A stretch of 64,000 nucleotides of DNA from an uncultured bacterium (GTDB lineage Bacteria > Abyssobacteria > SURF-5). Where the stretch lies: contig CAYVQZ010000022.1 in NCBI GenBank assembly GCA_964453435.1, forward strand, positions 4,782 to 68,781, written 5' to 3'. The notes below the pieces were generated by a model. The model searched no databases, was not told the origin of the DNA, and worked only from the letters and a program-made list of their open reading frames with translations. Numbering within the stretch: the stretch's first letter is position 1; each line of letters starts with the position of its first letter. The position numbers and the translations under genes were made by a program. Below, in pieces: positions 9,471 to 63,695 of the stretch.

Positions 9471-9920
9471 ATGATAAACGGCGTGAAGAAGGTTTCGCTT
9501 ATTCGTCACGTGGATGACCGCGGCTACGTCACCGAGATTCTCCGTTCGGATTCACCGCATTTCCAGAAGTTCGGCCAGGTTTACGTCGCCACGTGCCGCC
9601 ACAACGTAATCAAAGCCTGGCACTGCCACCGAAAGCAGACGGATAATTTTTTCGTGGTCAAGGGAACCGCAAAGATAGGTTTATATGACGACAGACCTGA
9701 CAGTCCGACGCGCGGCGAGTACAACGTGCTCATTCTCGGCGAAGACGGTGAGAACATGCTCCTGAGTATCCCGCCCATGGTATGGCACGGCCAGATGGGC
9801 CTGAGCGAGATGAGTTACCTGCTCAATATTCCCACCGAAGCGTACGACCCCAAAAATCCTGATGAGCTCAGAAAACGGGTCGATGAACTGGAAGACATCT
9901 GGACAATCAGAAACCGGTAG
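9471..9920 (+). CDS. RmlC-like cupin (short dTDP-4-dehydrorhamnose 3,5-epimerase-related sugar epimerase/isomerase)
   Basis: 149 aa containing DDRGYVTEI, KAWHCHRKQTDNFFVVKGTAKIGLYDDRPDSPTRGE and IPPMVWHG. GGGAGG Shine-Dalgarno. Confidence 0.7.
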   Translation: MINGVKKVSLIRHVDDRGYVTEILRSDSPHFQKFGQVYVATCRHNVIKAWHCHRKQTDNFFVVKGTAKIGLYDDRPDSPTRGEYNVLILGEDGENMLLSIPPMVWHGQMGLSEMSYLLNIPTEAYDPKNPDELRKRVDELEDIWTIRNR

Positions 9921-10016
9921 GAGCGGTTCGTTCCGTCTCCGCTTTCCGTAACTCTCCCGACATTCCTGCACGCCCGTGCCCGTTCCCCCGCGAGGTCAGG
10001 CGCACACAAAGCTTTT

Positions 10017-11543
10017 TCAGGGCGCGTACTCGATTACGTATATTCCCTGCGCCGGAACCGCCACATTCCTGAATCGCCCGTATTTATCGGAGGGGATATC
10101 GTGCTCTTTCAACCATTCGGAGAAACTTCTTTTTGTGACGACAAACCTGATTCCGAGCATGTTCAGATTTTCGAGCGTTTCTTCCGGCTGGAATGCCCTG
10201 CGCCAGTAATTTCCATGCTGCGTGTCAAGGTAGGTATGCGACTCGATATGGTACGCGAGGTGGGGTCCGAGGTCGGTGAGCACAGGCGAACGGGCGGGCC
10301 GATTCAGGGAGTTGACGACGGAGGCGACATGGTGGAACGGAATCCATCCGGTGTCTTTTTGCAGTTCCGCAATGTGGCGGGAACTGAAAAATTGGCCGAG
10401 GTATATTCCGCTTATCGCAATCAGGACTTGGATTGCCGCCATCAGCCACAATCTTTTTTGCTTGCTTATTGGAATGATTTCGAGAGCGGCGCCCACTGCG
10501 GCGGCCCATATGATTGCAGCCAGCGGTACGGCCATCAGCATGAATCGTTCATATCGGTAATACCAGAAGGAATGCAGGAACGCATATGCGAGAAATAGCA
10601 GACTGACCGCCCGTATCTTTGCTCCCAGTTTGCCGAAAAGCGAGAATAGTAACCCTCCCAGAAAAATCAATTGTCCCACTGACAACCACGCCACTCCGGC
10701 AACAATCGTAGCCGCTTCCTGCGCCGCCGCCTCCACCGACCTGATGGGCCAATGCATGAACCCGAACGGAACCCATACGTTGTAAGCGAAATTCGCGAAC
10801 ACGTCGGTTCGCAAGACCGTGCTTCGAAACTCCTCAAAGTATGCCGGAGACTCGCCCGCGTTCGCGCGAAGCCATATCCAATACAGGAGAGGCGGAAGCG
10901 CTGCAAGGACCGCCCCCGCCAGAAGAGGGAGCGCCTTCGCATGGGCGCGGTTCGTGAAAATAAGGAGAAAGAATATCGGAAACAGGAAGGCCGACTCAAC
11001 CCGCGTGACGATAGCGAAGCCCGCTGCGGCGCCGGCAAGGAAAAGGCTTGCATATCTCCCTGTCAGCACATACCTCATGAAGCAGACGAGTGATATGAGT
11101 GAAAGCGCCAGCGCGGCGCTTTCGGCCATGGGGAGAGAGAACCATTTGATGACGACGGGACTCGCCAGAAAAGCCGCGCACCCGAGGTAAGTTCCGGATT
11201 GAAGGTCGCATTCTCGCGCGACGGCGAACAAAGAAAGAGCGCAGACGACATACAGGGCGACGTTCATGAAGACAAACGGCTTGCCCAACAAGTAACAGAC
11301 GGAAAGGATATACGAATAGCCGGGAAGATACTTGGAATCTATCCCGTCGTTCCACGAAGTTGTCGGTCCGTCGCCGTTTGCTATCTGTTTTGCTTTGGAG
11401 AGATAGAAATAACTGTCTATCGTATAGGTGGCTGTCTGCCCGGCCTGCTCGATGATGACCATCGCCCCGACAAGACAGGTGAGAATCGTAACAAGTGCCA
11501 AGGCGGAACGTTGAAGCCGGAAAGGGTCAGCCTGCTCTGTCAA
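10017..11543 (-). CDS. Polytopic membrane glycosyltransferase, GT-C fold (ArnT/PMT-like)
   Basis: 508 aa with more than 10 hydrophobic helices and an early loop DSYFYLSKAKQIANGDG. The soluble C-terminal part is about 100 aa. Position 11543 is a TTG, so the start is uncertain. Confidence 0.6.
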   Translation of the reverse strand: MTEQADPFRLQRSALALVTILTCLVGAMVIIEQAGQTATYTIDSYFYLSKAKQIANGDGPTTSWNDGIDSKYLPGYSYILSVCYLLGKPFVFMNVALYVVCALSLFAVARECDLQSGTYLGCAAFLASPVVIKWFSLPMAESAALALSLISLVCFMRYVLTGRYASLFLAGAAAGFAIVTRVESAFLFPIFFLLIFTNRAHAKALPLLAGAVLAALPPLLYWIWLRANAGESPAYFEEFRSTVLRTDVFANFAYNVWVPFGFMHWPIRSVEAAAQEAATIVAGVAWLSVGQLIFLGGLLFSLFGKLGAKIRAVSLLFLAYAFLHSFWYYRYERFMLMAVPLAAIIWAAAVGAALEIIPISKQKRLWLMAAIQVLIAISGIYLGQFFSSRHIAELQKDTGWIPFHHVASVVNSLNRPARSPVLTDLGPHLAYHIESHTYLDTQHGNYWRRAFQPEETLENLNMLGIRFVVTKRSFSEWLKEHDIPSDKYGRFRNVAVPAQGIYVIEYAP

Positions 11544-11596
11544 TGAACTCCCTCTCTGAGTTAACGGGAGAAGAGAATCCGCCGCGGCTTCTCACG

Positions 11597-13372
11597 TCAT
11601 TCCCGGAGTTTTTCCAATGTTGTTTCAAGGTCTCTTTTGGCCTTCGGTATCCAACGGCTTCGGGGATATTCATCTATGAGTTTCTGGTAGCGGCCGGCAG
11701 CGAGGGCGTACCTGCCCTCCTCGAAGTAGGATTGTCCGAAGTTGTGCAGGCTGTCCGCAACGCTTTTGCTCGACTGGTTTTCCTGAAGCAGTGATTCAGC
11801 CTCCCGCAGGCGCGCGCTGCTCGGATATTGTGTCATAAAGTCCCGAATGAGTGAGATCGCCTCCTCGTATGTGGTCTGGTCGAGCCGGGCCAGCAAGCGG
11901 CGGTAAGCACGCTCGGATGGGTCTTTGGCAAGCAATTCCGCTTCTTCAAGCTTTGAACGCACGGCGCTTGCTGTCGGTGTTTGCGGGTATTGGTCCATGA
12001 TTTGACGATACAACGCGGCCGCATTATCATACTGTTCTGATTCCATTTGTTCTTCGGCCTGGCGCGCGAGCTGGGATGCTTTTTCCTCTGATTTTCTCAA
12101 TTCCTGATTTGTGATCCCTTTTTCGATCTTTGCAGCTTCTGCCCGAGCTTGAACCGCCGCTCCCGTATCCGGATAGCTTTCCATGACACTCCTCAAGAGG
12201 TCGAGCGCCGTGGCGTGGTCCCCTTCCGCGTACATGTTCAATGCATGGTCCAGCCGTTGTCGCGCGAGTTGTTCATTCTGCAGCTTGAGTTCCTCCCGCT
12301 GGGCTTCCAGTGTCTCACGCGCCTGTTCGAGAGTCGGTAGACGCTCCTGGATAAGTTTCGCTGTTTCCGTTTCCGGGTATAGTCCAAGGATTGTGCGGGA
12401 AACGCTTACGGCCTGGTCCAGTTGCCCTTCCGCCAAGGCCCTCTCCACATCCCGAAGCAATTGTTTCGCGTTGGCCTCGCGCTCCGCACGCATCTCCTCC
12501 GTCATCTCGAATTGGGCGGGTGTCCCGCCCGGGGAACTGATGGCCCCCTGCCTCCGGGTGGCCGAAATTTGTTCCAAACCATCCATCCGGCCCGGCCGTT
12601 TTGCCGAATCCAGTCTCGAGGTGAAGACCAGCATCGCGGCGAGAGAGAAAAGCAGAACCATCGCTCCCGAAACCGAGCCTGCCAGAGCGAAGGGGTGTCC
12701 TTTCGCCGAATCTTTGTTCAATCGAATTCTGGAGATCGCAATTCTGCCGAGCATCGCGGCGACCAGTCCGACGAGGGCTGCCCCCAGCGCCGCCGTGATG
12801 TTGAATTTCGGAAAAATTATGAAAAACGCGGAGAGCAACGCGACAATTCCGAATACAAGGCTTGCAAGCGCCATTCTGCCCGGAAAGGATGGTTGCGCCG
12901 CGCCGGGAATGATTCGGGCGACAGGACCCGCCCCGACAGCGGTCCCCGGCTCGGCTCCCACCTGTTTCTCCGCCCTGCACCTGCGGCAGTACATCTTTGC
13001 TTCGAGTCGCTCGCCGCACTCTTCACAAATGAATTTGCCGCATCCCACGCAGATGTGGCTCGACGTTCGTTCCGGATGGAATGCACAAGAGGGCATTTCT
13101 ATCTCGTTTCCGCTCTCGGGCAGGACAATCGATTCGGGTGAAGGATGGATTTCGCGCTTTTTCCCCTGTTTTTCAAACAGGTCGAACAATTCGAGCGCTT
13201 CGGAAGCGCGAACCCAATCGCCCATCTCGTCGTTCGTCACGAGGTCGTCCGGGTCTATCTGTTCCGATGCCACCCAGTGCCGGAGCACCTCGAGAGTGGC
13301 AGGCTCGAGTTTGCTGCCATCACTCTTCTTCACCTTCCAGTTCCGCGTATCGCGAAGTTCATCTCCGCTCAT
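11597..13372 (-). CDS. Membrane protein with GYF_2-like domain, B-box zinc finger, two TM helices and C-terminal TPR/YbgF-like repeats
   Basis: From ORF 11597..13393 (TTG), trimmed to ATG 13372 with a GAGGA SD. Contains WKVKKSDGSKLEPATLEVLRHWVASEQI...GDWVRA and CAFHPERTSSHICVGCGKFICEECGERLEAKMYCRRC. These are followed by a hydrophobic pair and repeated YxxA...YP TPR-like units. Confidence 0.7.
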   Translation of the reverse strand: MSGDELRDTRNWKVKKSDGSKLEPATLEVLRHWVASEQIDPDDLVTNDEMGDWVRASEALELFDLFEKQGKKREIHPSPESIVLPESGNEIEMPSCAFHPERTSSHICVGCGKFICEECGERLEAKMYCRRCRAEKQVGAEPGTAVGAGPVARIIPGAAQPSFPGRMALASLVFGIVALLSAFFIIFPKFNITAALGAALVGLVAAMLGRIAISRIRLNKDSAKGHPFALAGSVSGAMVLLFSLAAMLVFTSRLDSAKRPGRMDGLEQISATRRQGAISSPGGTPAQFEMTEEMRAEREANAKQLLRDVERALAEGQLDQAVSVSRTILGLYPETETAKLIQERLPTLEQARETLEAQREELKLQNEQLARQRLDHALNMYAEGDHATALDLLRSVMESYPDTGAAVQARAEAAKIEKGITNQELRKSEEKASQLARQAEEQMESEQYDNAAALYRQIMDQYPQTPTASAVRSKLEEAELLAKDPSERAYRRLLARLDQTTYEEAISLIRDFMTQYPSSARLREAESLLQENQSSKSVADSLHNFGQSYFEEGRYALAAGRYQKLIDEYPRSRWIPKAKRDLETTLEKLRE

Positions 13373-13505
13373 TTTTTCCTCGCGACCCTTCAAGACAGCG
13401 AAGCTGTCCGACAGTAGTTTGCAAGGCCGAAATGGCCGCCACCGGGAACGGTGTCCCTAACCGCCAAATTCATGAGTTTTTGCTCGCCATTTTCATGGCG
13501 CCTCG

Positions 13506-13535
13506 TTCATAATTTCAATGATGGCAATATGATGC
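13506..13535 (+). repeat. Copy C of the 30-bp conserved intergenic element (TTCATA-N16-TATGAT)
   Basis: Sequence ttcataatttcaatgatggcaatatgatgc. It lies inside the predicted 5' leader of the minus-strand GYF/B-box/TPR gene, in antisense orientation. Confidence 0.75.
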
Positions 13536-13554
13536 CGCACTCCTTCTCAACTCA

Positions 13555-13584
13555 ATTATAAACAAGGACTTCTGTCATGGTCAA
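13555..13584 (-). promoter_or_regulatory. Candidate sigma-70 promoter for the GYF/B-box/TPR gene
   Basis: Minus strand reads TTGACC (13584-13579), an 18-nt spacer, then TATAAT (13560-13555). The resulting leader is about 180 nt. Confidence 0.45.
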
Positions 13585-13623
13585 GCAGGGAGGCCCGATT
13601 CATGCGGCGTGGTTTCTCCGGTA

Positions 13624-15054
13624 TCACCGGGGAACCCTCGAATACCTGAGGGCGCTCCTGATTCCCCTGCACAGACGAGCAATATCATGCGGCGATTTCA
13701 ACCGGCTGGCGCGTCGCACGATATACGCCGGGCGAAAATAGAATCTGCGATAAGCTTGACCGATAAGTTGGCTTAATTTCTCGGGACTGAGTTGCCTTGT
13801 CCCAACGACAGGAGCACGACTCGTATATAAGGACCATTCGTTATGGATTAACCCCTCGTGTTTGAGCTGCTCATAGTAGGGCGTATTCGGGTAGGGGGTG
13901 GCCGCTGTGAACTGCGCCACGTCGGGTTCAAGGTTGACAGCCAATTCCACGGTCGCGCGAACGGTCGCTTCCGTTTCGCCGGGAAGCCCAATGATAAAAA
14001 ACGCCATCGTCTCGATGCCGAGTTGTCTGCAGCGCAGAAAGATGTTGCGGATTCGTTCACGAGGGATGGGCGTTCGTCTTACGTCTTTCAGAATTTCGGG
14101 GTCCGCCGATTCGACTCCGAAATTGATTGCCTTGCAACCGGCCCGGGCGAAGCTTTCGACCAATTCCTCGTTTGCCAGGTCGGCGCGTGTCTCACAGCGC
14201 CAGTCAACCTTGATTCCTCTCGAAGCGATCAGTTCGCATATCTGTCTTGCCCTGGGCTGATCGGCTGTGAACAGCGGGTCTCGAAAGAGAATCTCGCGCA
14301 CTCCGTATCGCTGCACACACTCCTCGATCTCGGCCACAACGTTTTCGGCGCTGCGCCCTCTCCACTTTGTTCCATGCCCGATGCGATAGGGACAATAGGT
14401 GCAGCCGTAATAGCAGCCGCGACTCGTCAGCATGGTGGTAAAAGGGGTCTTGCCCCAGACCGCCGAACGGTATTGGGCCATCGGCAGCAACTCACGCGCG
14501 GGGAACGGCAGATCGTCCAGGTTTTCAATGAGCGCGCGGTCCGGAAAGTGGAGAATCCCCGGTTCGGAACGCAGGCTTAATCCGGGAATACCGGTTGGAG
14601 GTTTTTCCCGTGCGAGCGCTTCGGATAATTCGGCGACAGTGAGTTCGGGCTCTCCCCGAACAACCGCATCGGCTCGCGAGTCCCGAATCGCCTGGTCGGC
14701 AAAAATCGACACATGAGGTCCAAGAAGGACAACGAAAGAGCGGGGACACGCTTCTTTGATGGCGTTTGCAATCGCCAAGTCGTCATGAATCGAAGGTGTG
14801 GCCGTGTTGACGGCAATAAGCCCGAAGCCTCCTTGCTTGACCCATGAGAGGGCTTTCGCCGGTTTCCAGCGAAGCGCGACGGCGTCCAGAATCTTGACTT
14901 CGAGACCGGCCCTCGCGATGACGGCGGCGCAATATGCCAGCGTGAGAGGGGGTGTCATGTTCGTACTTTTGATCTCGAATCCGAACCCGCCCATGTGGTC
15001 GCGGCTGATTACCACATCGCGGTCGGGCTGAGGGTTGAGCAGAAGGGTTTTCAT
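13624..15054 (-). CDS. B12-binding-domain radical SAM enzyme (class B)
   Basis: 476 aa. The N-terminal Rossmann-like cobalamin domain includes VVRGEPELTVAEL. The radical SAM cluster motif is SRGCYYGCTYCPY (CxxxCxxC). Confidence 0.85.
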   Translation of the reverse strand: MKTLLLNPQPDRDVVISRDHMGGFGFEIKSTNMTPPLTLAYCAAVIARAGLEVKILDAVALRWKPAKALSWVKQGGFGLIAVNTATPSIHDDLAIANAIKEACPRSFVVLLGPHVSIFADQAIRDSRADAVVRGEPELTVAELSEALAREKPPTGIPGLSLRSEPGILHFPDRALIENLDDLPFPARELLPMAQYRSAVWGKTPFTTMLTSRGCYYGCTYCPYRIGHGTKWRGRSAENVVAEIEECVQRYGVREILFRDPLFTADQPRARQICELIASRGIKVDWRCETRADLANEELVESFARAGCKAINFGVESADPEILKDVRRTPIPRERIRNIFLRCRQLGIETMAFFIIGLPGETEATVRATVELAVNLEPDVAQFTAATPYPNTPYYEQLKHEGLIHNEWSLYTSRAPVVGTRQLSPEKLSQLIGQAYRRFYFRPAYIVRRASRLKSPHDIARLCRGIRSALRYSRVPR

Positions 15055-15055
15055 G

Positions 15056-16249
15056 TCAACCGGCTCGACCTCTCTTTATCCGTTTCCAAACAGGACTGAA
15101 ATCCCCCTTAAAATACCTGATGGGGCCGGCGGCGAGGGAGAGCGCAATCAGAACCATGCCGGGCAGCGCCCCGAATATGTCCAGAAGGAATCGTCCGGGA
15201 CTTCGGACGAGCGGGGCAAGAAATGCGGTTCCAATAATATAGGAGACGGCCGTCGCCGTTCCCATTGTCGCCAGGAGCGGAACCAGCGCCTGCCGATCGA
15301 AAGCCGACCCGTACAACGCGGCGGCCGCGAAGGAAATTATAAGCAGGTAAACCCGGAGAATACGAAATAAAGCATACTCGGGAAGGATGACAAGGCCATA
15401 CCACCCGTAGCGCGGGTTGAAGAGCAATCGCCAATGGCGCATCAGCGACTGAGCCATGGCGCCCGCGTTGCGCTGTTTCTGGCGGGCGAAATCTTCAAGA
15501 GACTCCGCAGCCTGATATGTCGCCGACACTTCGGGCTCGAAGGCCGCTCGATAGCCCCGCTCGCGGAGTGAAATTCCGAATTCACGGTCCTCGTATATAA
15601 CTTCTGTCGAGAAATCACCGACAGCGGCGTGACGGACGACCGACAATTGGCCGAACAACCCGCCTGCGCTGTCCAAAAGACTTTCACCCAATTTCTGGGC
15701 GTTCTGGATATCGAAAAGAAATTGAGCGGTCCGGGTCAGATAATTCGCATCGCGATTGCGAACGGAAATGCTCCCCGACACAGCGCCAACCCGCGAGTCT
15801 CCGGCCCGGGCGACAAGCCTCCGAAGACATTGCGGGGACATGAGAACAGTCGTATCGGTGAGAACGATGAGTTCGGTCGTCGCTTCGGCGAACGCCATTT
15901 TCTGGGCGTATATCTTGCCCCGACGCCGATTTGAGCGTATCAGCCTGACCGTTCCCTTATCAAACCGCCGAACAATCTCCGGAGTTCGGTCAGTGGAGCC
16001 GTCATCGACAACGATTACGTTCAGAAGCTCGTGCGGGAAATCGGACTCGAAAAGGTTTTCCAGTTTTCTGCGGATATGATGCTCCTCATTGTAAGCGGGA
16101 ATGACGACTGTTATGGGGACGGTTTGGTCGGGAGCCGGCCGAAGCGGACGCAGCGACCATGCGGCCAGCATCAGAAGGTTGTAGACCATATACTGCCCCA
16201 GGGCGAGTCCACCGGTTGCAAGAGCGACTATAAAAAGAATTGACTCCAT
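15056..16249 (-). CDS. Multi-TM family-2 glycosyltransferase of the processive (NodC/PgaC/HpnI/ceramide-glucosyltransferase-like) architecture
   Basis: 397 aa. An N-terminal TM helix is followed by VVIPAYNEE, VVDDGSTDRT, LTDTT, YEDRE and QKQRNAGA (in place of QxxRW), then C-terminal TM helices. The stop lies 1 nt before the radical SAM gene start. Confidence 0.8.
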   Translation of the reverse strand: MESILFIVALATGGLALGQYMVYNLLMLAAWSLRPLRPAPDQTVPITVVIPAYNEEHHIRRKLENLFESDFPHELLNVIVVDDGSTDRTPEIVRRFDKGTVRLIRSNRRRGKIYAQKMAFAEATTELIVLTDTTVLMSPQCLRRLVARAGDSRVGAVSGSISVRNRDANYLTRTAQFLFDIQNAQKLGESLLDSAGGLFGQLSVVRHAAVGDFSTEVIYEDREFGISLRERGYRAAFEPEVSATYQAAESLEDFARQKQRNAGAMAQSLMRHWRLLFNPRYGWYGLVILPEYALFRILRVYLLIISFAAAALYGSAFDRQALVPLLATMGTATAVSYIIGTAFLAPLVRSPGRFLLDIFGALPGMVLIALSLAAGPIRYFKGDFSPVWKRIKRGRAG

Positions 16250-16258
16250 TATGTGCTG

Positions 16259-18850
16259 TCACTCCCGGGTCTCGCGCGCCGGCTCGCGCAACACGCGCAA
16301 GCGAAGCCGGTAATCGCCGAAGAAATTCCAATTGGAAGACAAGCTTATATCGAGAGCGAACTTATCGGCGTCTCGCAGGATTCCGTCGACCGAGCCTTCG
16401 ATTACCTGAAGCGTATAGCTCTTTTCTCCGACCGACACAAGCAACTCATTGTTGTCGAGAGCAGACGCGGCCGTGTATTCGCCCACCAGGTCGATTCGAA
16501 CCTGCCGGGGCCCGAGATCGCCTGCGAGCGTTCTTATGACGAATTCAAGGTCCGCGAACTGGCGTTTGCCCGAATCCATTCCGTTCGCCAGGATTGACAG
16601 GTCAATCGCATGCAGGGGAGTGAGGTATCGGCGCATGGCGCTCCCGTTTCCGGAGTCGAAGGTTTCGACCCGCATCACCTCGAACGCGTCGGCGCCTCCG
16701 ATTTCCGATGGCGGCGGATTCAGCCGATGACGATTAAACAATATCCTCATAATCGGAACCAGTTTCAATATCTGACGGCCCGGATAGACTTCTCTCAACA
16801 TGGTGTAAAGAGCATGGACAAGTCCCCTTTTCCAGCCGTAACAGCCGTCAAAAGCCGGTCGAATCCCGAGTTTCTCGCCGAGCGAGAACTCTGGTCGGTC
16901 CTGGAGGATGCCAACAAAAGACGGATTTGACGCAGACAGTTCCAAGTTCTGATGCGTCGACGGTACGGGGATTAAGAGTTGCGAGTGACGCTCGGCTGTC
17001 CGTTCTTTTTCCGGCGCTTTAAGCGCATCCAGCAGGAACTCGACAAACGAATCGGTGACAAACGTCGGTTCGATGTGAATACTCTCCAGCCCTGTGGGAT
17101 AATCAAAGAACCACGTTTCGGAGAATCCCCCATCCCGCTCCTGAAGCGCGGCAATATTTTCGAACAGTTGCCAGGCGAGATTTTCCCACATTGTCTCGAC
17201 AGTCTTGCCGGCCAGTCTCAAGAACGCACGGGCTGTCAACAGTCCTCCCCAGAGGTCGATTCGAGGGGTAATGGAACTCGCGAGCCCATCGAATGACATG
17301 ACCGCGCTGAACTCGCCGCCACCTGGACGAATCCATTGAAGCGCATAGACGCCCCACTTTCTCGCCTGGCTGATTGCGTCGGAGGCGGCGTCAAGCTCGT
17401 GCCAATCAAGATTCGCATGGATGCACGCCTCGGAGCTTATCCCGTCCGCTTCCGACGGGTCAACATCGCGAAGATACTGCCTGCAGGCAAAAAAACTCGT
17501 GTTTCTGTTCACGAAACGCAAACCGGCTTCGGCGGCGCTCCGATACCTTTGTTTTCTTGTGCGCCGATATGCCGCAACGAGCGCGCGAACGGCTTCGGCG
17601 GTTGCGGCGACGCAGCCGTCCATACGTTTTCCCGGTTTTCCTCGAAACACCGCCGGCCACCAGCCTGCTTCGGTCTGCGTTTCCGTGAGCCAATCGGCTC
17701 CCGAACGCGCAAGAGGGTCGATTTCCTCGTCGCCGGTCAATGAGCAATATTCGAACAGCCGTCGGACAACGGTGGCCATGCCGCCGGGAAATCCGACAAA
17801 TCCGATTCCGTGATGCGTGAAGGGAATGAGGCCGTCGCCATTGAAATATGTCGTGGTGTGCCAAAGTTGTTTTCCGGCCATCTCGTAGCAATACGCCTTG
17901 CTTGAAAGTTTCTCGGACAGTGCCTTCTCTCTTTCCCGCGCCTTGTCGTGCCCCATTTCGGCCAACCGTCGGAATAGCACCAATTTCGTCAAGTCATCGG
18001 TCACATGAGAATGTTTGAATTCCTTTGATTCAAAGCCGGGAATGTTCTTGCGCGGAATGTGAAGATGCGTGCGGTTCCGGTCATCCCACACTCGATTGTA
18101 AAAGCGAAGCGCCGCCCGAAGTTTTTGGTCGAGCCGCCCCGGCGAAAGATTGCTTTCCATGTGTGAGTCGAGCCCCACGTGGTCCATGCAGGCGCACACG
18201 CACTCTTCCCATGTGTCCGCCGCCACAAGCAGGAAGCGGGCGTCGAATGCCTGACGCTCGTCCAGTCGCAGCGTGTATCCGTGTCGTTTTGCCCCAGTTC
18301 CAAACCACCCGAACGGCTTGCGAATCACTTCAAACTCAGGAAGGAGGGCGGCGGAGAAATCCACGACCGCCTGAGCGCCCGTCGCCTTTATGAAAAGGGG
18401 ACTGAACCCGAGGGGAAACAAAATTGTTTTTGGAAACGCGATGGCAAAGGCCCTGTGTCTCTCCTGCCAGCATGCGACCGGCATTTTCGTGAAGAGCGCG
18501 GCGTCATATCGAGCGCGAGCCCTGATGCGAAACTTGTAATAGGAATTGTACGGGAACGGCAGTTTTCGTTCCGCAATCGAGTGGTCATTCGTCAGATGAT
18601 AGCTTCTGCCTCCGATGAACGCCGCTTCGGGATAGAACTCGCCCAGCCTGAGACCGAGGATTTCGAGCGGAAGCAGGTGGTCCAAGGACTTTTCCACAGT
18701 CCAGCGAACCGTTACGAGGACCGCGCCTTCGCGAGCCGAAACTTCGGTGTTTTGTCGGACCCCCTCGGGCGGCTTTGTTCTCAAATTCCCCACGAACGCT
18801 TCATTGAGGATAATCTCTCCCTTTCGGATTTCAATCTGATGCAAAGCCAT
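16259..18850 (-). CDS. Large cytoplasmic protein of unknown function (possible alpha/alpha-toroid repeats)
   Basis: 863 aa with an ATG start, no signal peptide and no family I recognise. Segments WLTETQTEAGWWPAVF...DGCVAATAEAVRALVAAY and IAALQERDGGFSETW resemble prenyltransferase/terpene-cyclase-type toroid repeats. The gene is tightly coupled to both neighbours. Confidence 0.6.
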   Translation of the reverse strand: MALHQIEIRKGEIILNEAFVGNLRTKPPEGVRQNTEVSAREGAVLVTVRWTVEKSLDHLLPLEILGLRLGEFYPEAAFIGGRSYHLTNDHSIAERKLPFPYNSYYKFRIRARARYDAALFTKMPVACWQERHRAFAIAFPKTILFPLGFSPLFIKATGAQAVVDFSAALLPEFEVIRKPFGWFGTGAKRHGYTLRLDERQAFDARFLLVAADTWEECVCACMDHVGLDSHMESNLSPGRLDQKLRAALRFYNRVWDDRNRTHLHIPRKNIPGFESKEFKHSHVTDDLTKLVLFRRLAEMGHDKAREREKALSEKLSSKAYCYEMAGKQLWHTTTYFNGDGLIPFTHHGIGFVGFPGGMATVVRRLFEYCSLTGDEEIDPLARSGADWLTETQTEAGWWPAVFRGKPGKRMDGCVAATAEAVRALVAAYRRTRKQRYRSAAEAGLRFVNRNTSFFACRQYLRDVDPSEADGISSEACIHANLDWHELDAASDAISQARKWGVYALQWIRPGGGEFSAVMSFDGLASSITPRIDLWGGLLTARAFLRLAGKTVETMWENLAWQLFENIAALQERDGGFSETWFFDYPTGLESIHIEPTFVTDSFVEFLLDALKAPEKERTAERHSQLLIPVPSTHQNLELSASNPSFVGILQDRPEFSLGEKLGIRPAFDGCYGWKRGLVHALYTMLREVYPGRQILKLVPIMRILFNRHRLNPPPSEIGGADAFEVMRVETFDSGNGSAMRRYLTPLHAIDLSILANGMDSGKRQFADLEFVIRTLAGDLGPRQVRIDLVGEYTAASALDNNELLVSVGEKSYTLQVIEGSVDGILRDADKFALDISLSSNWNFFGDYRLRLRVLREPARETRE

Positions 18851-19745
18851 TTCGTTTCCTTGTCAGCCAAAAAGCCGCTCCCATCAGGGCAGGTATCCCC
18901 AAGCCTAGTATGTCATACATCAGGCTTATCATAAGGGACTGTTCATAGCTTGCGCCAACCGGCGGCCGTTGCAACAGTATTATCATAGCTGCTTCTCTTA
19001 TGCCAAATCCGGAGAAACTGATCGGGAGCATTGATGACAGCAGCGCGGGCGGAACAACCAGCGTAATGTGCGACACGTGCGCTTCAAGCCGAACAGCCTT
19101 GCAGAAACACCACACTTCCAAAAAGACCACGCCCCAATAGCAGGCGGTTGCAACAGCCGCGCCGAAAAGCCGGTTCGGAGAGACGGCGCGCCAGAAGTCA
19201 GGCAGGGAGACCCCCCGCGCATTTGCCCACAGAAGACCGGCCGCCATTGCGCCGGCGAGTGACACCGCCATGAGCGCAATGGCGAGCGTCCACCCCGCAT
19301 TCCAGTCCATCCGGAAATCGGACCTGAAAAACACATACAGCCCAAGTGCGGCAAGCGGCCCGAGAAACATCAGGTCCAGAACCCTTTCGGCAACGAAACA
19401 TATGAGTCCTCGCGTTGCCGGAACACCCGATTCCGCCTTCAACATGTAAATTTTGGTTATCTCTCCGATTTTTGCCGGAGAGAGGATTCCGGGCAGAAAG
19501 GAAATCATCTGAATTCTCAGGGTTTCCCGGAGCTTCCGGAACGCCGATTCTCCGAAGACCATCAGGGCCAACCGGTAAGCTCGCATCACCTGACCAACCA
19601 CGATCAACACGACGGACGCGGCGAGAAACGTGTAGCGGATGTCTCCGAGGCGGGGGATATCTTTGTCGAAATCCGCCTTTTGAATGATAAAGAGGAGGAT
19701 AGTAAGCGAGACGAGTATCTTCAGAGCGGTTGAGAATTTTCTCAA
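18831..19745 (-). CDS. UPF0104 / lysylphosphatidylglycerol-synthase-TM-region (flippase-like) membrane protein
   Basis: From ORF 18831..19892, polytopic. Contains MRAYRLALMVFGES...ISFLPGILSPAKIGEITKIYML. The ORF's 5' extension overlaps the upstream GT2, so the likely start is TTG 19745 (GGGAGG 4 nt upstream) or TTG 19757. The 3' end overlaps the next gene by 20 nt. Confidence 0.6.
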   Translation of the reverse strand: MRKFSTALKILVSLTILLFIIQKADFDKDIPRLGDIRYTFLAASVVLIVVGQVMRAYRLALMVFGESAFRKLRETLRIQMISFLPGILSPAKIGEITKIYMLKAESGVPATRGLICFVAERVLDLMFLGPLAALGLYVFFRSDFRMDWNAGWTLAIALMAVSLAGAMAAGLLWANARGVSLPDFWRAVSPNRLFGAAVATACYWGVVFLEVWCFCKAVRLEAHVSHITLVVPPALLSSMLPISFSGFGIREAAMIILLQRPPVGASYEQSLMISLMYDILGLGIPALMGAAFWLTRKRNGFASD

Positions 19746-19759
19746 TAAGCCTCCCAACG

Positions 19760-20623
19760 TTAAGGAGAACGCTTGTCTATCAGGTCGGCCAGCAATCCGA
19801 TGACCGCCACCTGAACCGCCAACGACACAAGGATGATAACCGTGACGTCCATGACCCGGCCCAGAAAGAATGCGCTGTACAGCAAAATCCACATTCCGAG
19901 CAAAAAAAGGGCAACGCTGATTGGTATGAATATCTTCAGGGGATTGAAATACATCACTGTGCGAATAATAGTCATTAAGAATCCGAGAGTGTCGGAAAAT
20001 GGCCGTATCTTGCTCTTCCCCGTCCGCGGATGATAATCAATAGACTGGAAATGAACCCGATAGTCATTGCTCAGCATGGCAAGCGTTATGGTCATTGTGA
20101 AGGAAAAGCCCTGCGGCAGGATATTCAGGAAGCGCTGAACCGCTTGCTTCCGCATCACCCGCATTCCGGAGTTGAGGTCTGGTATCTTCGTCGAAGCAAG
20201 ATAGTTGGCGAGCGCGGTGAGCGCCCATTTGGCCGGTCGCCGAAAGAGCGGCATGGCGACATTGTCGCCCGTCCGCGCTCCCACAACCATGTCGGAATAC
20301 TCCATTGCCCGAACCAGGCCCGGCAGCGACTGCGGAGGATACGTGCCATCTGCGTCGGTTATGGCGATCAGTTCGTGGTGCGCAACCTTCAGACCTTGCT
20401 TTATCGCTGCGCCGTATCCCCTGTTTATGCCGAGGTCTATGACGCGAGTATGGCGATATTGTTCCGCCACCCGGGAGGTTTGGTCGGTGGAGCCGTCGTT
20501 GACCACGATGATCTCGTATTGCGCCCCCTCCGCTTCCATCGCGGAGATGATTCCTTCCAGGACGGAGCCGATGCTTTGCTCCTCGTTATGTGCCGGAATG
20601 ATAATCGAGACGGGTTCAGACAA
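19760..20623 (-). CDS. Polyprenyl-phosphate glycosyltransferase-like GT2 (GtrB/ArnC/DPM family) with C-terminal TM helices
   Basis: 287 aa with a TTG start and GAGGAGG SD. Contains IIIPAHNEE, VVNDGSTDQT, GINRGYGAAIKQG and ITDADGTYP, plus two C-terminal hydrophobic helices. Confidence 0.8.
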   Translation of the reverse strand: MSEPVSIIIPAHNEEQSIGSVLEGIISAMEAEGAQYEIIVVNDGSTDQTSRVAEQYRHTRVIDLGINRGYGAAIKQGLKVAHHELIAITDADGTYPPQSLPGLVRAMEYSDMVVGARTGDNVAMPLFRRPAKWALTALANYLASTKIPDLNSGMRVMRKQAVQRFLNILPQGFSFTMTITLAMLSNDYRVHFQSIDYHPRTGKSKIRPFSDTLGFLMTIIRTVMYFNPLKIFIPISVALFLLGMWILLYSAFFLGRVMDVTVIILVSLAVQVAVIGLLADLIDKRSP

Positions 20624-40275: not shown

Positions 40276-41382
40276 TTATGCGCCAAAAACTTCCTTAAAT
40301 TTGTCCAGGAACTTCTTGGTGAGCGGGTGCGCTTCGTTGCCGCTGATTCTGGCAAATTCTTCGAGCAACTCTTTTTGACGGTCGTTCAACCTGGCCGGCG
40401 TTTCAATGATGACACGGACCAGCAGGTCTCCCCTCCCGTGGCCACGTATATGAGGCATGCCCTTGTGTTTGATCCGGAAAACTTTGTGGGTCTGCGTGCC
40501 CGGCGGAATTTTCAGCGTCACTTTCCCATCGAGAGTCGGCACCTCAAGCTGCGTGCCGAGCGCCGCTTGAGGAAACGAGATGGGCACGTTGCATGTGAGG
40601 TCGCTGTCCTCGCGATGAAAGAAGTCGTGCGGCAGGACTTTGACAAGAATATAGAGGTCCCCGGGCGTGCCGCCGCTGATTCCTGCCTCGCCCTCTCCGC
40701 GATACCGGATACGGGAGCTCGAATCGACGCCGGGCGGGATGCTTACCCGCAGTTTTCTCTGATTGCGAACCCGGCCCTCGCCCTTGCAGGCCTTGCACGG
40801 ATTCTCAATGACGGTTCCCAGGCCGACGCAGCGATGACAGGTGCGTGTGATGCTGAAGAAGCCTTGCGTTTGCCTCAGTCTCCCGGCGCCTCGACAGACG
40901 GGGCAGGTCGCTCGCGAGGTTCCCGCCGATGAGCCGGCGCCGTGACATTCCTCACAGGTTTCCATTCGGGCGACGTTGATTTCTCTGTCCACACCTTCGT
41001 ATGCTTCCTCGAGGGTGACCTCGAATTCATATGCTATGTCGTCCCCCCGTTGCGCCTGCGTGCGTCGCCTGGTGGTTGTGCCGCCGAAGAAGTCTTCGAA
41101 AATGTCCCCGAAAATGTCGCCAAAAGAGCCGAATCCGGAGAAATCACGGAAACCGCCACCGACACCGGCGTGACCGAACTGGTCGTAGGTGGCGCGCTTC
41201 TCGGGGTCTATCAGAACGGCATACGCCTCGGAGATTTCTTTGAACCTTTCTTCTGACTCCTTGTTTCCGCGCGTGCGGTCGGGATGGTGCTCCATCGCGA
41301 GCTTGCGATAGGCTTTCCTTACCTCATTTTCTGAGGCGTCGCGAGATACCCCGAGGATGTCATAATAATCGCGTTTACCCAT
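40276..41382 (-). CDS. dnaJ: Molecular chaperone DnaJ
   Basis: 368 aa. The J domain reads DYYDILGV...HPD, followed by a G/F region and four CxxCxGxG zinc repeats. Confidence 0.95.
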   Translation of the reverse strand: MGKRDYYDILGVSRDASENEVRKAYRKLAMEHHPDRTRGNKESEERFKEISEAYAVLIDPEKRATYDQFGHAGVGGGFRDFSGFGSFGDIFGDIFEDFFGGTTTRRRTQAQRGDDIAYEFEVTLEEAYEGVDREINVARMETCEECHGAGSSAGTSRATCPVCRGAGRLRQTQGFFSITRTCHRCVGLGTVIENPCKACKGEGRVRNQRKLRVSIPPGVDSSSRIRYRGEGEAGISGGTPGDLYILVKVLPHDFFHREDSDLTCNVPISFPQAALGTQLEVPTLDGKVTLKIPPGTQTHKVFRIKHKGMPHIRGHGRGDLLVRVIIETPARLNDRQKELLEEFARISGNEAHPLTKKFLDKFKEVFGA

Positions 41383-41455: not shown

Positions 41456-43375
41456 TCAGTTCTTCGGCTCTTCTTCGTCAACGACCTCGTAATCGGCATC
41501 GGCGACATTTGCCTCGCCTTCCTGCGCAGTCTCTCCTTCGGTCTGCGTTTGAGCCCCGCCTTCCGCTCCAGGCTGTTGCGCCTGCTCGTAAAGACGTTGG
41601 GCAAACTCATGGGAGACGGATGTGAGTTCCTCCATCGCTCGTTCGATTGCTCCGATATCTTCTCCGCTCATTGCCTGGCGCACCTTGTCGATTGTGGCGT
41701 TTGTTCGGTTCCGCTCGTCTTCGCTCACCTTGTCGCCCAGGTCCTTCAGCGTTTTCTCCGTGCTGTAGACAAGGGAATCCGCCTGATTCCGGGTCTCGGC
41801 CAGTTTGCGGCGGCGTTTATCTTCCTCGGCGTGTGATTCGGCCTCCGTGACCATTTTCTCGATTTCTTGTTCGGAAAGCCCGCTCGACGCCTCGATCCGG
41901 ATTTTCTGTTCCTTGCCCGTTCCGAGGTCTTTGGCCGACACGTGCACGATTCCGTTCGCGTCGATGTCGAACGTCACCTCGATCTGGGGAATTCCGCGGG
42001 GGGCGGGGGGGATTCCCAGCAGATCGAACCGCCCAAGCGTGCGGTTATCGGACGCCATCTCCCGCTCGCCCTGCAAAACATGGATACTGACCGCCGTCTG
42101 ACCATCCGCCGCCGTGGAGAATATCTGGCTTTTCCGCGTGGGGATGGTAGTGTTCTTGGGTATCAACTTCGTGCAAATGCCGCCGAGTGTTTCTATGCCG
42201 AGGGAAAGCGGAGTTACATCGAGCAGGAGCACGTCCTTCACATCGCCCGAAAGCACGCCCGCCTGTATGGCCGCGCCGATCGCGACGACTTCATCGGGAT
42301 TCACGCCCTTATGAGGCTCCTTGCCGAACAGGTTCCTCACAAGGGATTGAACCGCAGGCATGCGGGTTTGGCCGCCGACCAGAATGACTTCGTCGATATC
42401 GTCCGGAGAAATCCTTGCGTCCCGCAGCGCCGTGAGACATGGCTGCCTGGTGCGCTCGATCAGGTCGTCCACGAGTTGTTCCAGCTTGGCGCGGCTCAGC
42501 GTCATGTTCAAGTGTTTGGGACCGGAAGCGTCGGCGGTGATAAAAGGAAGGTTGATATCCGTTGTCTGCGAGGTCGAAAGTTCACATTTCGCTTTTTCGG
42601 CGGCCTCTTTCAATCGTTGCAGGGCCATACGGTCAGCGCGGAGGTCGATCCCCTGTTCTCTCTTGAATTCGTCTGCGAGCCAGTCGATGATCCTCTGGTC
42701 GAAGTCATCTCCCCCGAGATGCGTGTCGCCGTTTGTGGCTTTGACCTCGAAGACGCCCTCGCCGAGTTCGAGGATGGAGATGTCAAATGTTCCTCCGCCC
42801 AGGTCGTAGACGGCTATTTTCTCGTCCTTTTTCTTGTCGAGACCGTAGGCGAGGGAGGCGGCGGTCGGTTCGTTTATTATCCGGAGAACCTCCAGTCCGG
42901 CAATCCGGCCCGCGTCTTTCGTCGCTTGTCGTTGGGCATCGTTAAAGTATGCGGGAACCGTGATGACGGCCTGGCTCACTTTCTCCCCGCTATAGTCTTC
43001 AACCGTTTCTCTCATTTTCTGGAGGATCATCGCCGATATCTCTGGAGGATTCATCGTCTTTCCGCCAACATCGACGACGACGTTGTCGCCGTCTCCCGAT
43101 TTCACCTCATAGGGCACGAGTTTTTCTTCGGTGAGAACCTCGTTGTGTCTCCGACCCATGAATCGCTTGATGGAGAAAACGGTGTTTTCGGGATTCGTGA
43201 TCGCCTGCCGTTTGGCCACCGTGCCGACAAGCCGCTCGCCCCCCTTCGTAAAAGCCACTACGGAGGGGGTGGTTCGCCCGCCCTCCGCGTTTGGCACGAC
43301 AGTCGGTTCGCTCCCCTCCATGATTGCGACACACGAGTTTGTGGTTCCCAGATCGACACCTATTACCTTACCCAT
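41456..43375 (-). CDS. dnaK: Molecular chaperone DnaK (Hsp70)
   Basis: From ORF 41456..43384, trimmed to ATG 43375 ([14 protein letters not shown]...). Contains DLGGGTFD. Carries the long form of the N-terminal insert ([33 protein letters not shown]). Confidence 0.97.
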
Positions 43376-43484
43376 TCGCCACAATGCCTCCGCTTTCCGT
43401 TCCCGTTTGTCCGAGATGTTCGCCCGCCGCTGGTTTCATTATCAGTAAACGTTTCCCTGTCCCTCTCCGCAGCAGACGCAAGGC

Positions 43485-44165
43485 TTATTCGTCCCCTCCG
43501 GATGAGCCTTCGTCCTCATGCACGTGCTCGTGAGTGCCGACGGTCACCTGGGCCGGCCTCAGCACTTTGTCATGCAGATAATATCCTTTCCGGATTTCAT
43601 CCACGACCGACCCCTCGGGCTTGTTCGGAGCATACACCCGCAACAGCGCGTCGTGCTTATTGGGATCGAATGGATGGCCCACGCTCTCGATGGGCCGAAC
43701 GCCGAGCTTCTCGAGGACATCGCGAAACTGGCCGAGGATCATGTCCACTCCCTCGCGGAGCTGGGAGTTCGAATCACCATGCGTGCGTGCCGACTCCACC
43801 GCTCGTTCCAGATTGTCAACAACGGGAAGAAGTTCCTCGACAGCCCTCTCGGCTCCGTATTTCAGAAGGTTGGCCTGGTCTTTCTGAACCCGCTTCCGGT
43901 AATTGTCAAAGTCGGCCTGGGTCCGAAGCAGGCGGTCGTAATACTCGTCCCTTTCCCGGGCCAGCCTAGCTGCTTCCTCGGGCGTTATGGAAAACGCTTC
44001 GCCGGAATTGGGTTCAACCGCTTCAGGGATTGGCCCGGTTTCCTCCGGCTCGCCTTCAAACGCAGCATCCGCCTGCTCATTTCGGTCAGAGACTTCTCCC
44101 TCGGTTGCTTCCGCAGGGGCTCTCGTTTGGTCTTTCTTGTATTTCTGGTCTTTCTTCCTGGACAT
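43485..44165 (-). CDS. grpE: Nucleotide exchange factor GrpE
   Basis: 226 aa containing RTQADFDNYRKR and GYYLHDKVLRPAQV. Confidence 0.9.
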   Translation of the reverse strand: MSRKKDQKYKKDQTRAPAEATEGEVSDRNEQADAAFEGEPEETGPIPEAVEPNSGEAFSITPEEAARLARERDEYYDRLLRTQADFDNYRKRVQKDQANLLKYGAERAVEELLPVVDNLERAVESARTHGDSNSQLREGVDMILGQFRDVLEKLGVRPIESVGHPFDPNKHDALLRVYAPNKPEGSVVDEIRKGYYLHDKVLRPAQVTVGTHEHVHEDEGSSGGDE

Positions 44166-49167: not shown

Positions 49168-49209
49168 AACTTCAACAGGTGTTATTCTTTTCCTTCAACA
49201 ACACTTCCA

Positions 49210-49238
49210 AATATAAAGATCGCGGCGCGCCTTGTCAA
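49210..49238 (-). promoter_or_regulatory. Candidate sigma-70 promoter for the membrane sulfatase-fold gene
   Basis: Minus strand reads TTGACA (49238-49233), a 17-nt spacer, then TATATT (49215-49210), 43 nt upstream of ATG 49167. Confidence 0.4.
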
Positions 49239-49338
49239 TCGAACCCATGGTCGAAGGCCAAATGAACCGGTCGGAGTTCTTTTCTCAAACAGACTGCGGG
49301 TCATCACTTTCCACTTGCTCCGAACATGGAAATGGCGT

Positions 49339-51363: not shown

Positions 51364-51369
51364 AGAATG

Positions 51370-53049: not shown

Positions 53050-53124
53050 TCCCAATTATACCACGACAAGACGAACCTCTTGTGGTCCGACCAACGAGCG
53101 GAATCAAAAAAATGCAGCCCGAGC

Positions 53125-62849: not shown

Positions 62850-62853
62850 GAAT

Positions 62854-63651: not shown

Positions 63652-63695
63652 AATGACTCTGCAGAATGCGAGGTCGAGAACCTGACGGGAGGCTT

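Follow-up and report, generated by a model that had tools for sequence, protein, structure and literature searches.

The five genes described here lie side by side on the minus strand of a 64,000-nucleotide (nt) stretch of contig CAYVQZ010000022.1, from an uncultured bacterium of the Abyssobacteria lineage SURF-5. This whole stretch is referred to as the window. In gene order they encode a GtrB/DPM1/ArnC-type family 2 glycosyltransferase (GT2), a UPF0104 flippase-like protein, a soluble protein of 863 amino acids (aa) termed here the toroid protein, a membrane-embedded GT2 and a class B radical S-adenosylmethionine (SAM) enzyme. We give an even chance to the reading that these genes form a conserved membrane-associated module on the cytoplasmic side of the inner membrane, where a lipid-linked sugar would be made, remodeled and exported. 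The analysis showed how the genes are arranged, which domains and folds they encode, that the unit is conserved across lineages and that its proteins score below the cut-offs of the hopanoid (Hpn) equivalogs. The coordinates of all features are collected in Table 1.

The order of the genes is conserved. The five genes were found together in the Abyssubacteria-type contigs L001, L002, L004, L007, L009, L010 and L012. These contigs are syntenic throughout, from tilS-hpt-ftsH-folP-glmM-pdxJ-nnrD up to the genes for a tetratricopeptide repeat (TPR) protein, a PMT_2-family protein and a convergent cupin. Within this clade, conservation might reflect no more than inherited synteny. A second lineage (L013/L014, GC 0.68) also carries all five genes in unchanged order, with identities of 56% for the GtrB-type GT2, 35-39% for the UPF0104 protein, 34-36% for the toroid protein, 44-47% for the membrane GT2 and 57-58% for the radical SAM enzyme. 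Here, the unit is flanked by a divergent beta-propeller/S55 peptidase gene pair and by a glyoxalase gene, and none of the flanking genes of the window is found. A third lineage (L005 and L029, GC 0.50-0.54) keeps four of the five genes in order and carries an extra B12 radical SAM gene: GtrB-type GT2 (60%), toroid protein (32-33%), extra radical SAM protein (31%), membrane GT2 (44%) and radical SAM enzyme (50%). The two contigs were counted as one lineage because their toroid proteins are 74% and their extra radical SAM proteins 80% identical. The GtrB-type GT2, the toroid protein, the membrane GT2 and the HpnJ-like radical SAM enzyme are common to the three lineages and therefore form the core, and the UPF0104 gene lies inside the cluster in two of three. 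The neighborhood check thus bears out the five-gene adjacency on which the original prediction, made by a model from the letters of the window, had been built. Because the unit persists in L013/L014, where every flank changes, the adjacency is not mere synteny, and on this comparative evidence we regard the five genes as a conserved unit and not as chance neighbors.

Orthologues of the GtrB-type GT2 are 53-80% identical and occur in all three lineages and in a further contig, L015 (GC 0.34). Those of the radical SAM enzyme are 50-75% identical, followed by a sharp fall to about 40%. In L015 the GtrB-type GT2 (53%) and the radical SAM enzyme (51%) co-occur without the toroid protein, alongside UPF0104 and PMT_2 genes. 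This region (L015 1-21386) holds three B12-binding radical SAM genes, a second GT2 gene, a SAM methyltransferase, a DUF362 and a DUF2206 gene. A CDP-alcohol phosphatidyltransferase, a nucleotidyltransferase and two asparagine-synthase-like genes are found there as well. Contig L006 (CP070779.1, 'Hydrogenedentota bacterium'; 9815-14056) was set aside as conservation evidence. It belongs to a metagenome-assembled genome (MAG) given as a 3.5-Mb record, and a likely assembly junction interrupts the locus. There, an open reading frame (ORF) for an 860-aa toroid protein precedes a GT2 gene that is cut short at about 281 aa. The genes beyond are unrelated and include an opposite-strand YdjC-family gene, and no UPF0104 or GtrB gene lies upstream.

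The spacing of the genes was analyzed next to their order. In the ORF list, the UPF0104 gene (18831-19892) has a GTG start at 19892, which would give a 133-nt overlap with the GtrB-like gene. Inspection of the sequence revealed an in-frame TTG at 19745 with GGGAGG just upstream. The Pfam LPG_synthase_TM alignment begins at residue 56 of the long ORF, and initiation at 19745 gives a protein in the size range of the orthologues (297-307 aa). Since these three lines of evidence agree, the start was moved to 19745. Counted from the radical SAM gene, the first two gaps are therefore 1 nt and 9 nt, the next two genes overlap by 20 nt, and the last gap is 14 nt, exactly as in the original prediction. 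That prediction had deduced co-translation as one unit. Tight spacing rather supports co-transcription and translational coupling of the five genes. Shine-Dalgarno-like motifs precede the GtrB-like, UPF0104 and toroid genes, and weaker ones the last two. The first gene starts with TTG, seven bases past GGAGG, and the unit begins 78 nt downstream of an nnrD-like gene. The stop codon of the radical SAM gene is followed by a 230-nt gap. A consensus scan identified in this gap a sigma-70-like promoter (TTGACC-18-TATAAT, 11/12 positions, a pattern match only), and this candidate marks the probable 3' boundary of the unit. A scan for terminators on the minus strand found nothing convincing downstream of the radical SAM gene, and no riboswitch or other RNA was matched by Rfam in the window.

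Searches against Pfam and NCBIfam agreed with all domain calls made before: B12-radical SAM, multi-transmembrane (TM) GT2, no family match for the 863-aa protein, UPF0104 and GtrB-like GT2. The GtrB-like GT2 begins with a GT-A (GT2) domain. Its C-terminal part is hydrophobic at about residues 231-249 and again at 260-278, as in the two TM helices of the GtrB/ArnC/DPM1 type. Its top five NCBIfam matches are all polyprenyl-phosphate glycosyltransferases (AglJ, 116 bits; dolichyl-phosphate (Dol-P)-hexose transferase, 101; ArnC, 73.5; PgfS, 66; PpgS, 64.5). Every score lies under the equivalog cut-off (325 for AglJ, 529 for ArnC and 370 for PpgS). The protein is predicted to be a polyprenyl-phosphate sugar transferase. 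The UPF0104 protein is polytopic with about seven or eight hydrophobic segments. Besides PF03706, it passes the threshold of TIGR00374 ('flippase-like domain', 51.8 bits with a cut-off of 43.2), which places it in the UPF0104/LPG_synthase_TM family. It reaches 25.5 of the 320 bits set for the equivalog of GpgF, the glucosaminyl (GlcN)-phosphatidylglycerol flippase.

The membrane GT2 has one hydrophobic segment near the N-terminus and three or four toward the C-terminus, and also passes the threshold of Glyco_transf_21 (36.4 bits). Its NCBIfam matches include PgaC (94 bits, cut-off 422), MftF (82), NodC (65, cut-off 550) and HpnI (35, cut-off 310). The motifs VVDDGSTD, TD(T/A)T, YEDREFG and QKQRN are conserved. 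The last of these occupies the QxxRW position in five of five aligned orthologues, with N in place of W. Thus neither QxxRW nor an equivalog-level score was found, the two features by which processive synthases of the PgaC/NodC/BcsA type were judged. The enzyme is therefore probably non-processive.

The radical SAM enzyme carries a B12-binding domain, a radical SAM core and a CX3CX2C motif (GCYYGCTYC), which assigns it to class B; the use of cobalamin is predicted. HpnJ (TIGR03471) is its best NCBIfam match and covers the full length, yet the score of 247 bits fails the equivalog cut-off of 577.6. AprD4 (171 bits), BchE (158) and P-/C-methylases (139 or less) follow, and none of the three top curated families is named a methyltransferase. 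Among them, HpnJ has been proposed to act on a lipid-linked glucosamine (PMC13459092, PMC9204698). In BLAST searches the protein is 31-32% identical to annotated HpnJ on Burkholderia and Mycetohabitans replicons. Two further relatives were looked up together with their surroundings. One (L016) is about 40% identical and lies among polysaccharide-type genes. The other is the best plasmid match (32% identity), found on plasmid pDCAR1 of Solidesulfovibrio carbinolicus (L030, 56896-82299). Its sugar-modification cluster encodes an epimerase/dehydratase, an acyltransferase, a glycosyltransferase and a sialate O-acetylesterase, with three more radical SAM genes nearby and IS elements flanking the whole.

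Based on the combination of GT2, B12-radical SAM and UPF0104 genes, the original prediction had drawn a parallel to hpnI, hpnJ and hpnL. The combination itself holds. Burkholderia sp. PAMC 26561 carries a real hpnJ-hpnI-LPG-synthase-domain cluster, and hpnI/J/K/L likewise encodes a membrane GT2, a B12 radical SAM enzyme and a UPF0104/LPG-synthase-domain protein together. The identity of the single genes does not, since all three fail the Hpn equivalog tests. In addition to the radical SAM enzyme, the membrane GT2 misses the HpnI cut-off (TIGR03472) and is 25% identical to HpnI over 248 aa, covering the catalytic half only. HpnL (TIGR03476) is not among the two NCBIfam families matched by the UPF0104 protein at E <= 0.01, and BLAST gave no match between this protein and the Burkholderia LPG-synthase-domain gene beside hpnI. 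In contrast to the hpn cluster, the unit contains an extra GtrB-type GT2 and the toroid protein and lacks a YdjC deacetylase. A scan of large ORFs in the window revealed no squalene-hopene cyclase (SHC), HpnH or YdjC (hpnK), as the original prediction had said of the near surroundings, nor do shc, hpnH or hpnK appear in the gene lists of L001, L002, L004 and L014. In one survey, HpnI/J domains turned up exclusively in genomes that also encode SHC and HpnH (bioRxiv 10.1101/2025.07.29.667474). Membership in a hopanoid pathway was rejected on the equivalog scores, the direct BLAST comparisons with HpnJ, HpnI and HpnL and the missing SHC, HpnH and YdjC among the scanned ORFs. As far as these comparisons reach, the hopanoid link is only remote and the five-gene unit is not a hopanoid pathway.

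The toroid protein had been called unrecognisable. It has no Pfam or NCBIfam match, no TM segment and no hydrophobic N-terminus in a hydrophobicity scan. Structure prediction, Foldseek and profile searches changed this picture: the modeled fold is that of six-hairpin carbohydrate enzymes, and the protein belongs to a sizeable superfamily with mainly archaeal members. The close family comprises 19 members, of which the named ones are Candidatus Abyssubacteria or Hydrogenedentota MAGs. A full-length AlphaFold2 model built from 19 homologues (mean predicted local distance difference test (pLDDT) 76.7, predicted template modeling score (pTM) 0.80) shows an (alpha/alpha)6 toroid between two beta domains. 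A toroid-only model from 61 sequences was better (pLDDT 86.8, pTM 0.89). Searched with Foldseek against the PDB, the toroid matched GH76 mannanases, cellobiose and N-acetylglucosamine (GlcNAc) 2-epimerases, the sulfoquinovose isomerase YihS, mannose isomerase and GH88 enzymes. These matches have TM scores of 0.6-0.72 at 10-14% identity and identify the toroid as an (alpha/alpha)6 fold of the AGE-superfamily type. The modeled fold indicates a carbohydrate-acting enzyme, without specifying the reaction. The toroid protein shares its fold with AGE epimerases and six-hairpin glycosidases (cellobiose 2-epimerase, GlcNAc 2-epimerase, YihS, GH76 and GH88), but differs from them in its low identity, its scores under the Pfam thresholds and its flanking beta domains.

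Residues invariant in the superfamily are R253, P266, F273, G350, G353, P355, G396, W398, L460, R461, D462, R530 and E578. Within the close family H346, H347 and H478 do not vary, but this does not extend to the superfamily. H346/H347 would be the candidate for the catalytic His pair in the barrel centre of AGE enzymes; the superfamily does not keep this pair, whereas R253, R461, D462, R530 and E578 are conserved. Two other assignments were tried and not adopted. A terpene cyclase was rejected, as the SHC profile match is weak (E 3e-6, with no stretch passing alone) and covers one hairpin only. It is level with the matches to C5-epimerase and LanC, and Foldseek puts SHC under the sugar epimerases and GH76. 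A glucuronyl C5-epimerase has weak sequence matches and is not among the top structural matches. We read the SHC, C5-epimerase and LanC profile matches, of one or two hairpins each, as generic toroid-repeat similarity.

An exhaustive profile search placed 126 representative clusters in the superfamily, 53 of them at E < 1e-10. Proteins of 1572-1627 aa are included, and in one protein (P0026) the toroid-like domain is fused to a C-terminal GT4 domain. When metagenomes were scanned and a distant member was used to search for homologues, the larger branch proved to be archaeal, with Thermoplasmatota, Archaeoglobaceae, Hadarchaeota and Nanohaloarchaea. Members with 22-25% identity to the window protein lie in gene arrays. 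Thermoplasmatota-type arrays (L018; L022, 3902-11660; L026, 3936-11576) encode a GT28-like protein, a protein of 600-627 aa, a GT4, a toroid-like protein and UPF0104. The conserved 600-627-aa protein was considered as a toroid relative and found to be unrelated. An Archaeoglobaceae array (L027, 5239-15230) encodes a GT2, UPF0104, a GT4 and a toroid-like protein; another UPF0104 gene and a PLD-family gene are close by. L028 encodes a GT2, a toroid-like protein and a GT2. In L027 a GT2 is also fused to the LPG_synthase_TM (UPF0104) domain in a protein of 535 aa, whose gene lies next to DUF2298. The pairing of GtrB-type GT2 and UPF0104, fused in this archaeal locus, had been overlooked before. 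Together with the toroid-GT4 fusion, it gives independent support for functional coupling. Judged by gene content, the arrays look like an undescribed archaeal glycolipid or Dol-P-sugar module. In both domains of life, the toroid family is, by its gene neighborhoods, repeatedly tied to small lipid-type glycosyltransferases and UPF0104.

A further glycosyltransferase of the GT-C type (PMT_2 family) lies two genes downstream of the unit on the same strand and was likewise overlooked in the original prediction. It has nine or more hydrophobic segments and is conserved in the Abyssubacteria-type loci, so that polyprenyl-phosphate GT2, flippase-like protein and GT-C are all encoded on one strand in the window and in these loci. 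It is a candidate periplasmic user of the flipped lipid-linked sugar. PMT_2 genes are also found near the L014 and L015 clusters; these are not close homologues of the one in the window.

Put together, the following scheme is suggested, in which the substrates, the order of the steps, the flippase activity and the link to the GT-C are predictions from sequence. The GtrB/DPM1-type GT2 would move a hexose or N-acetylhexosamine (HexNAc) from a nucleotide sugar onto polyprenyl phosphate. The membrane GT2, apparently non-processive, would add a further sugar or glycosylate a second lipid. The soluble toroid protein and the HpnJ-like radical SAM enzyme would then alter the lipid-linked sugar. Epimerization/isomerization or trimming would be likely for the toroid protein, and ring contraction, dehydration or C-methylation at an unactivated carbon for the radical SAM enzyme. 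UPF0104 would flip the remodeled sugar to the outer leaflet, from where the GT-C encoded downstream may, in this lineage, pass it to an envelope acceptor. Remodeling ahead of the flipping step has a precedent in the Arn pathway, where ArnD modifies the lipid-linked sugar, which makes such a step plausible here. Given the downstream GT-C and the GtrB-UPF0104 pairing, the unit is no less likely to supply a polyprenyl-phosphate-sugar donor than to glycosylate a membrane lipid directly. The original prediction of an undescribed membrane-lipid glycosylation pathway was thus right in part. The literature searched held no description of the five-gene combination and nothing relevant on Abyssubacteria lipids, and envelope lipids are not a topic of the Abyssubacteria genome paper.

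Several points weigh against the lipid-linked sugar module. The UPF0104 gene is not between the other genes in the L005/L029 lineage. Flippase activity of UPF0104 proteins is unproven for GpgF (PMC12713373) and unclear for HpnL (bioRxiv 10.1101/2025.07.29.667474). The H346/H347 pair, which might hint at a reaction like that of AGE epimerases, is conserved in the close family only. In a sequence similarity network HpnJ groups with the methylases Fom3 and MoeK5 (PMC9204698), so that the radical SAM enzyme may act by methylation as well as by rearrangement. The GT-C is set behind its own promoter-like site, is not orthologous between lineages and is not adjacent to the unit in L014, where it lies 9 kb away. 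For these reasons, the GT-C step may fall outside the module. Finally, two GT2s suit a two-sugar lipid-linked product or, equally, two separate acceptors.

In a reading that follows the original prediction and that we hold to be somewhat unlikely, the unit is an HpnI/J/L-like head-group pathway and the end product is a non-hopanoid membrane glycolipid, glycosylated directly by the multi-TM GT2. The HpnJ-like enzyme would contract the ring to a carbocyclic cyclitol, as proposed for bacteriohopanetetrol (BHT) cyclitol ether and calditol, with help of the toroid protein, and UPF0104 would flip the product. The gene set indeed mirrors the real hpnJ-hpnI-LPG-synthase-domain cluster, HpnJ is the best curated match of the radical SAM enzyme over its full length, and the membrane GT2 passes the threshold of Glyco_transf_21, the ceramide glucosyltransferase family. 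Archaeal relatives of the toroid protein stand with GT28, GT4 and UPF0104, which are enzyme types used for glycolipids, and both gpgSDF and hexSDF give membrane glycolipids (PMC12713373). Ring contraction by HpnJ is itself only a proposal (PMC13459092). The equivalog thresholds are missed widely at identities of only 25-31%, and Pfam and NCBIfam detected no HpnK/YdjC-type deacetylase in the unit. Moreover, this pathway has no role for the GtrB-type GT2, the gene most tightly coupled to the radical SAM gene across lineages, and leaves the downstream GT-C unexplained. The most far-reaching reading we consider rather unlikely. Here, non-hopanoid bacteria would use the unit to build a sugar that is carbocyclic (cyclitol-type) or otherwise radically rearranged, anchored to a polyprenyl or a membrane lipid. 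The toroid protein would be the founding member of a new enzyme family, present in both domains, that epimerizes, isomerizes or trims lipid-linked sugars before UPF0104 flips them, and its archaeal relatives would do likewise for archaeal glycolipid head groups.

Very unlikely, in our estimate, is an exopolysaccharide (EPS) or oligosaccharide synthase operon with a PgaC/NodC-like membrane GT2, a toroid protein acting on the polymer as epimerase, lyase or hydrolase, similar to glucuronyl C5-epimerase or alginate/heparin lyases, and a radical SAM enzyme that decorates the polymer. PgaC is the top NCBIfam match of the membrane GT2, followed by EpsU, EpsD and NodC, but its 94 bits compare with a cut-off of 422, and the processivity motif is altered in all orthologues aligned. 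The sandwich/toroid/sandwich layout recalls polysaccharide lyases and GH15/GH65, and the weak profile matches to glucuronyl C5-epimerase point the same way. Without a hydrophobic N-terminus or TM segment, however, the toroid protein is probably cytoplasmic and apart from an exported polymer. The radical SAM relatives in L016 and L030 do lie among polysaccharide-type genes, whereas the unit itself has no Wza/Wzc, ABC exporter, PgaA/B or Bcs-type partners, and its UPF0104 and GtrB-type genes indicate lipid-linked monosaccharide chemistry. No Wzx/Wzy, ABC exporter or initiating phosphoglycosyltransferase was found in the block, which sets it apart from the ordinary EPS or O-antigen locus considered as an alternative in the original prediction. 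That the five genes are neighbors by inherited synteny only, with unrelated envelope functions, is scarcely credible. The Abyssubacteria-type contigs are syntenic from tilS to the cupin gene, as such an explanation would have it, but five genes stay joined in L013/L014 with all flanks changed and four in L005/L029, and the reading frames overlap or nearly abut.

Other features of the window were noted as well. Between the radical SAM gene and the PMT_2 gene lies a gene for a membrane TPR protein. It follows the radical SAM gene in L001, L002, L004, L007-L009 and L012 and is absent there in L014, and its association is limited to the Abyssubacteria-type clade. The RmlC/FdtA-like cupin is 75-83% identical and occupies the same position in L001, L002, L009 and L012, a conservation that most genes of the unit do not reach. 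It may be a nucleoside diphosphate (NDP)-sugar isomerase/epimerase that supplies an unusual NDP-sugar, with a weak association with the unit. A second envelope-glycosylation-type block combines a GT2 and a PMT_2 GT-C with a protein of no assigned family and a sulfatase/LtaS-like protein. The genome therefore holds more than one GT2 and GT-C pairing. A 700-aa ORF at 41867-43969 (plus) matches NAD-GH (PF10712) with 460 bits and lies between the minus-strand genes hrcA (44166-45245) and dnaJ (40276-41382). We take this Pfam family to consist mostly of antisense dnaK translations, and the real gene at 41867-43969 is probably a minus-strand dnaK. GC drops to 0.48 in the last 2 kb of the window (61458-64000 region). 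A DNA methylase-like ORF (61458-62849) is followed there by an ORF without Pfam match (62854-63651), and the region may be a restriction-modification or mobile insertion.

Table 1. Features of the five-gene unit and of other loci discussed, in window coordinates. Scores are in bits; a second value is the threshold.
Feature	Position	Strand	Length	Evidence or remark
Five-gene unit	13624-20623	minus	~7 kb	ORF listing
Gene 1, GtrB/DPM1/ArnC-type GT2	19760-20623	minus	287 aa	PF00535 109, residues 6-164
Gene 2, UPF0104/LPG_synthase_TM flippase-like protein	18831-19745	minus	304 aa	PF03706 113.8/33.4
Gene 3, toroid protein, soluble, three domains	16259-18850	minus	863 aa	AlphaFold2 model, Foldseek
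Gene 3, N-terminal beta-sandwich	18218-18850	minus	aa 1-211	AlphaFold2 model
Gene 3, (alpha/alpha)6 six-hairpin toroid	16976-18211	minus	aa 214-625	AlphaFold2 model
Gene 3, C-terminal beta domain	16286-16933	minus	aa ~640-855	AlphaFold2 model
Gene 4, membrane-embedded GT2	15056-16249	minus	397 aa	PF00535 98.9, PF13641 78.5, PF13632 55.2
Gene 5, class B radical SAM enzyme	13624-15054	minus	476 aa	PF02310 44.3/32.1; PF04055 88.6/29.5
Sigma-70-like promoter match	13555-13584	minus		Consensus scan
Membrane protein, GYF/zinc-ribbon N-terminus, three or four TM, BamD/YbgF-like TPR C-terminus	11597-13393	minus		Pfam, NCBIfam
PMT_2-family GT-C glycosyltransferase, polytopic	10017-11543	minus	508 aa	PF13231 35.4/26.1
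RmlC/FdtA-like cupin, convergent with PMT_2 gene	9471-9920	plus	149 aa	PF00908, PF14667, PF05523
Second envelope-glycosylation-type block	46969-53991	minus		
GT2	53125-53991	minus	288 aa	Second block
Protein of no assigned family	51370-53055	minus	561 aa	Second block
PMT_2 GT-C	49339-51363	minus	674 aa	Second block
Sulfatase/LtaS-like protein	46969-49167	minus	732 aa	Second block; Sulfatase domain aa 309-617
Further sulfatase	45590-46936	plus		Beside second block

UPF0104 proteins are widespread, and their partners and substrates are known in few cases only. The unit and its archaeal relatives define a recurring partnership of UPF0104, small glycosyltransferases and six-hairpin proteins, and thereby give the toroid superfamily a testable functional context. 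A conserved HpnJ-like B12 radical SAM enzyme outside of the hopanoid context suggests that radical remodeling of lipid-linked sugars may reach further than BHT cyclitol ether and calditol, the two cases proposed so far. In its hosts, which are uncultured bacteria of the subsurface, the unit would be an envelope trait, and at 7 kb it is compact enough for heterologous expression.

The calditol synthase Cds is known from acidophilic archaea, and we know of no calditol-type lipid from these bacteria. Cds is a radical SAM enzyme proposed to contract the ring of a lipid-linked hexose (PMC13459092) and is likened to the enzyme of the unit by description only. Closer in gene content are gpgSDF of P. 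aeruginosa, for GlcN-phosphatidylglycerol, and hexSDF of C. difficile, for an aminohexosyl glycolipid, which like the unit combine a glycosyltransferase, a cytoplasmic modifier and a UPF0104 predicted flippase (PMC12713373). Their transferase is a GT4 and their modifier a deacetylase, whereas the unit has two GT2s, the toroid protein and a B12 radical SAM enzyme. The three-component periplasmic glycosylation systems GtrA/B/C, ArnC/D/E-F/T, AglD/R/S and PgfS/M combine a GT2 that ends in two TM helices with a flippase candidate and a GT-C transferase, and genes of these three types also share the strand of the unit in the window. In contrast to the Gtr and Arn systems, the flippase candidate is UPF0104 and not GtrA or ArnE/F, and the GT-C is set off by the promoter-like site and the TPR gene and is not beside the unit in other lineages. 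To our knowledge, no Gtr/Arn-type system has a radical SAM or toroid enzyme. In summary, operons for synthesis, modification and flipping of lipid-linked sugars are already known, and the unit is new for one uncharacterised enzyme superfamily and for an HpnJ-like radical SAM enzyme in a non-hopanoid setting.

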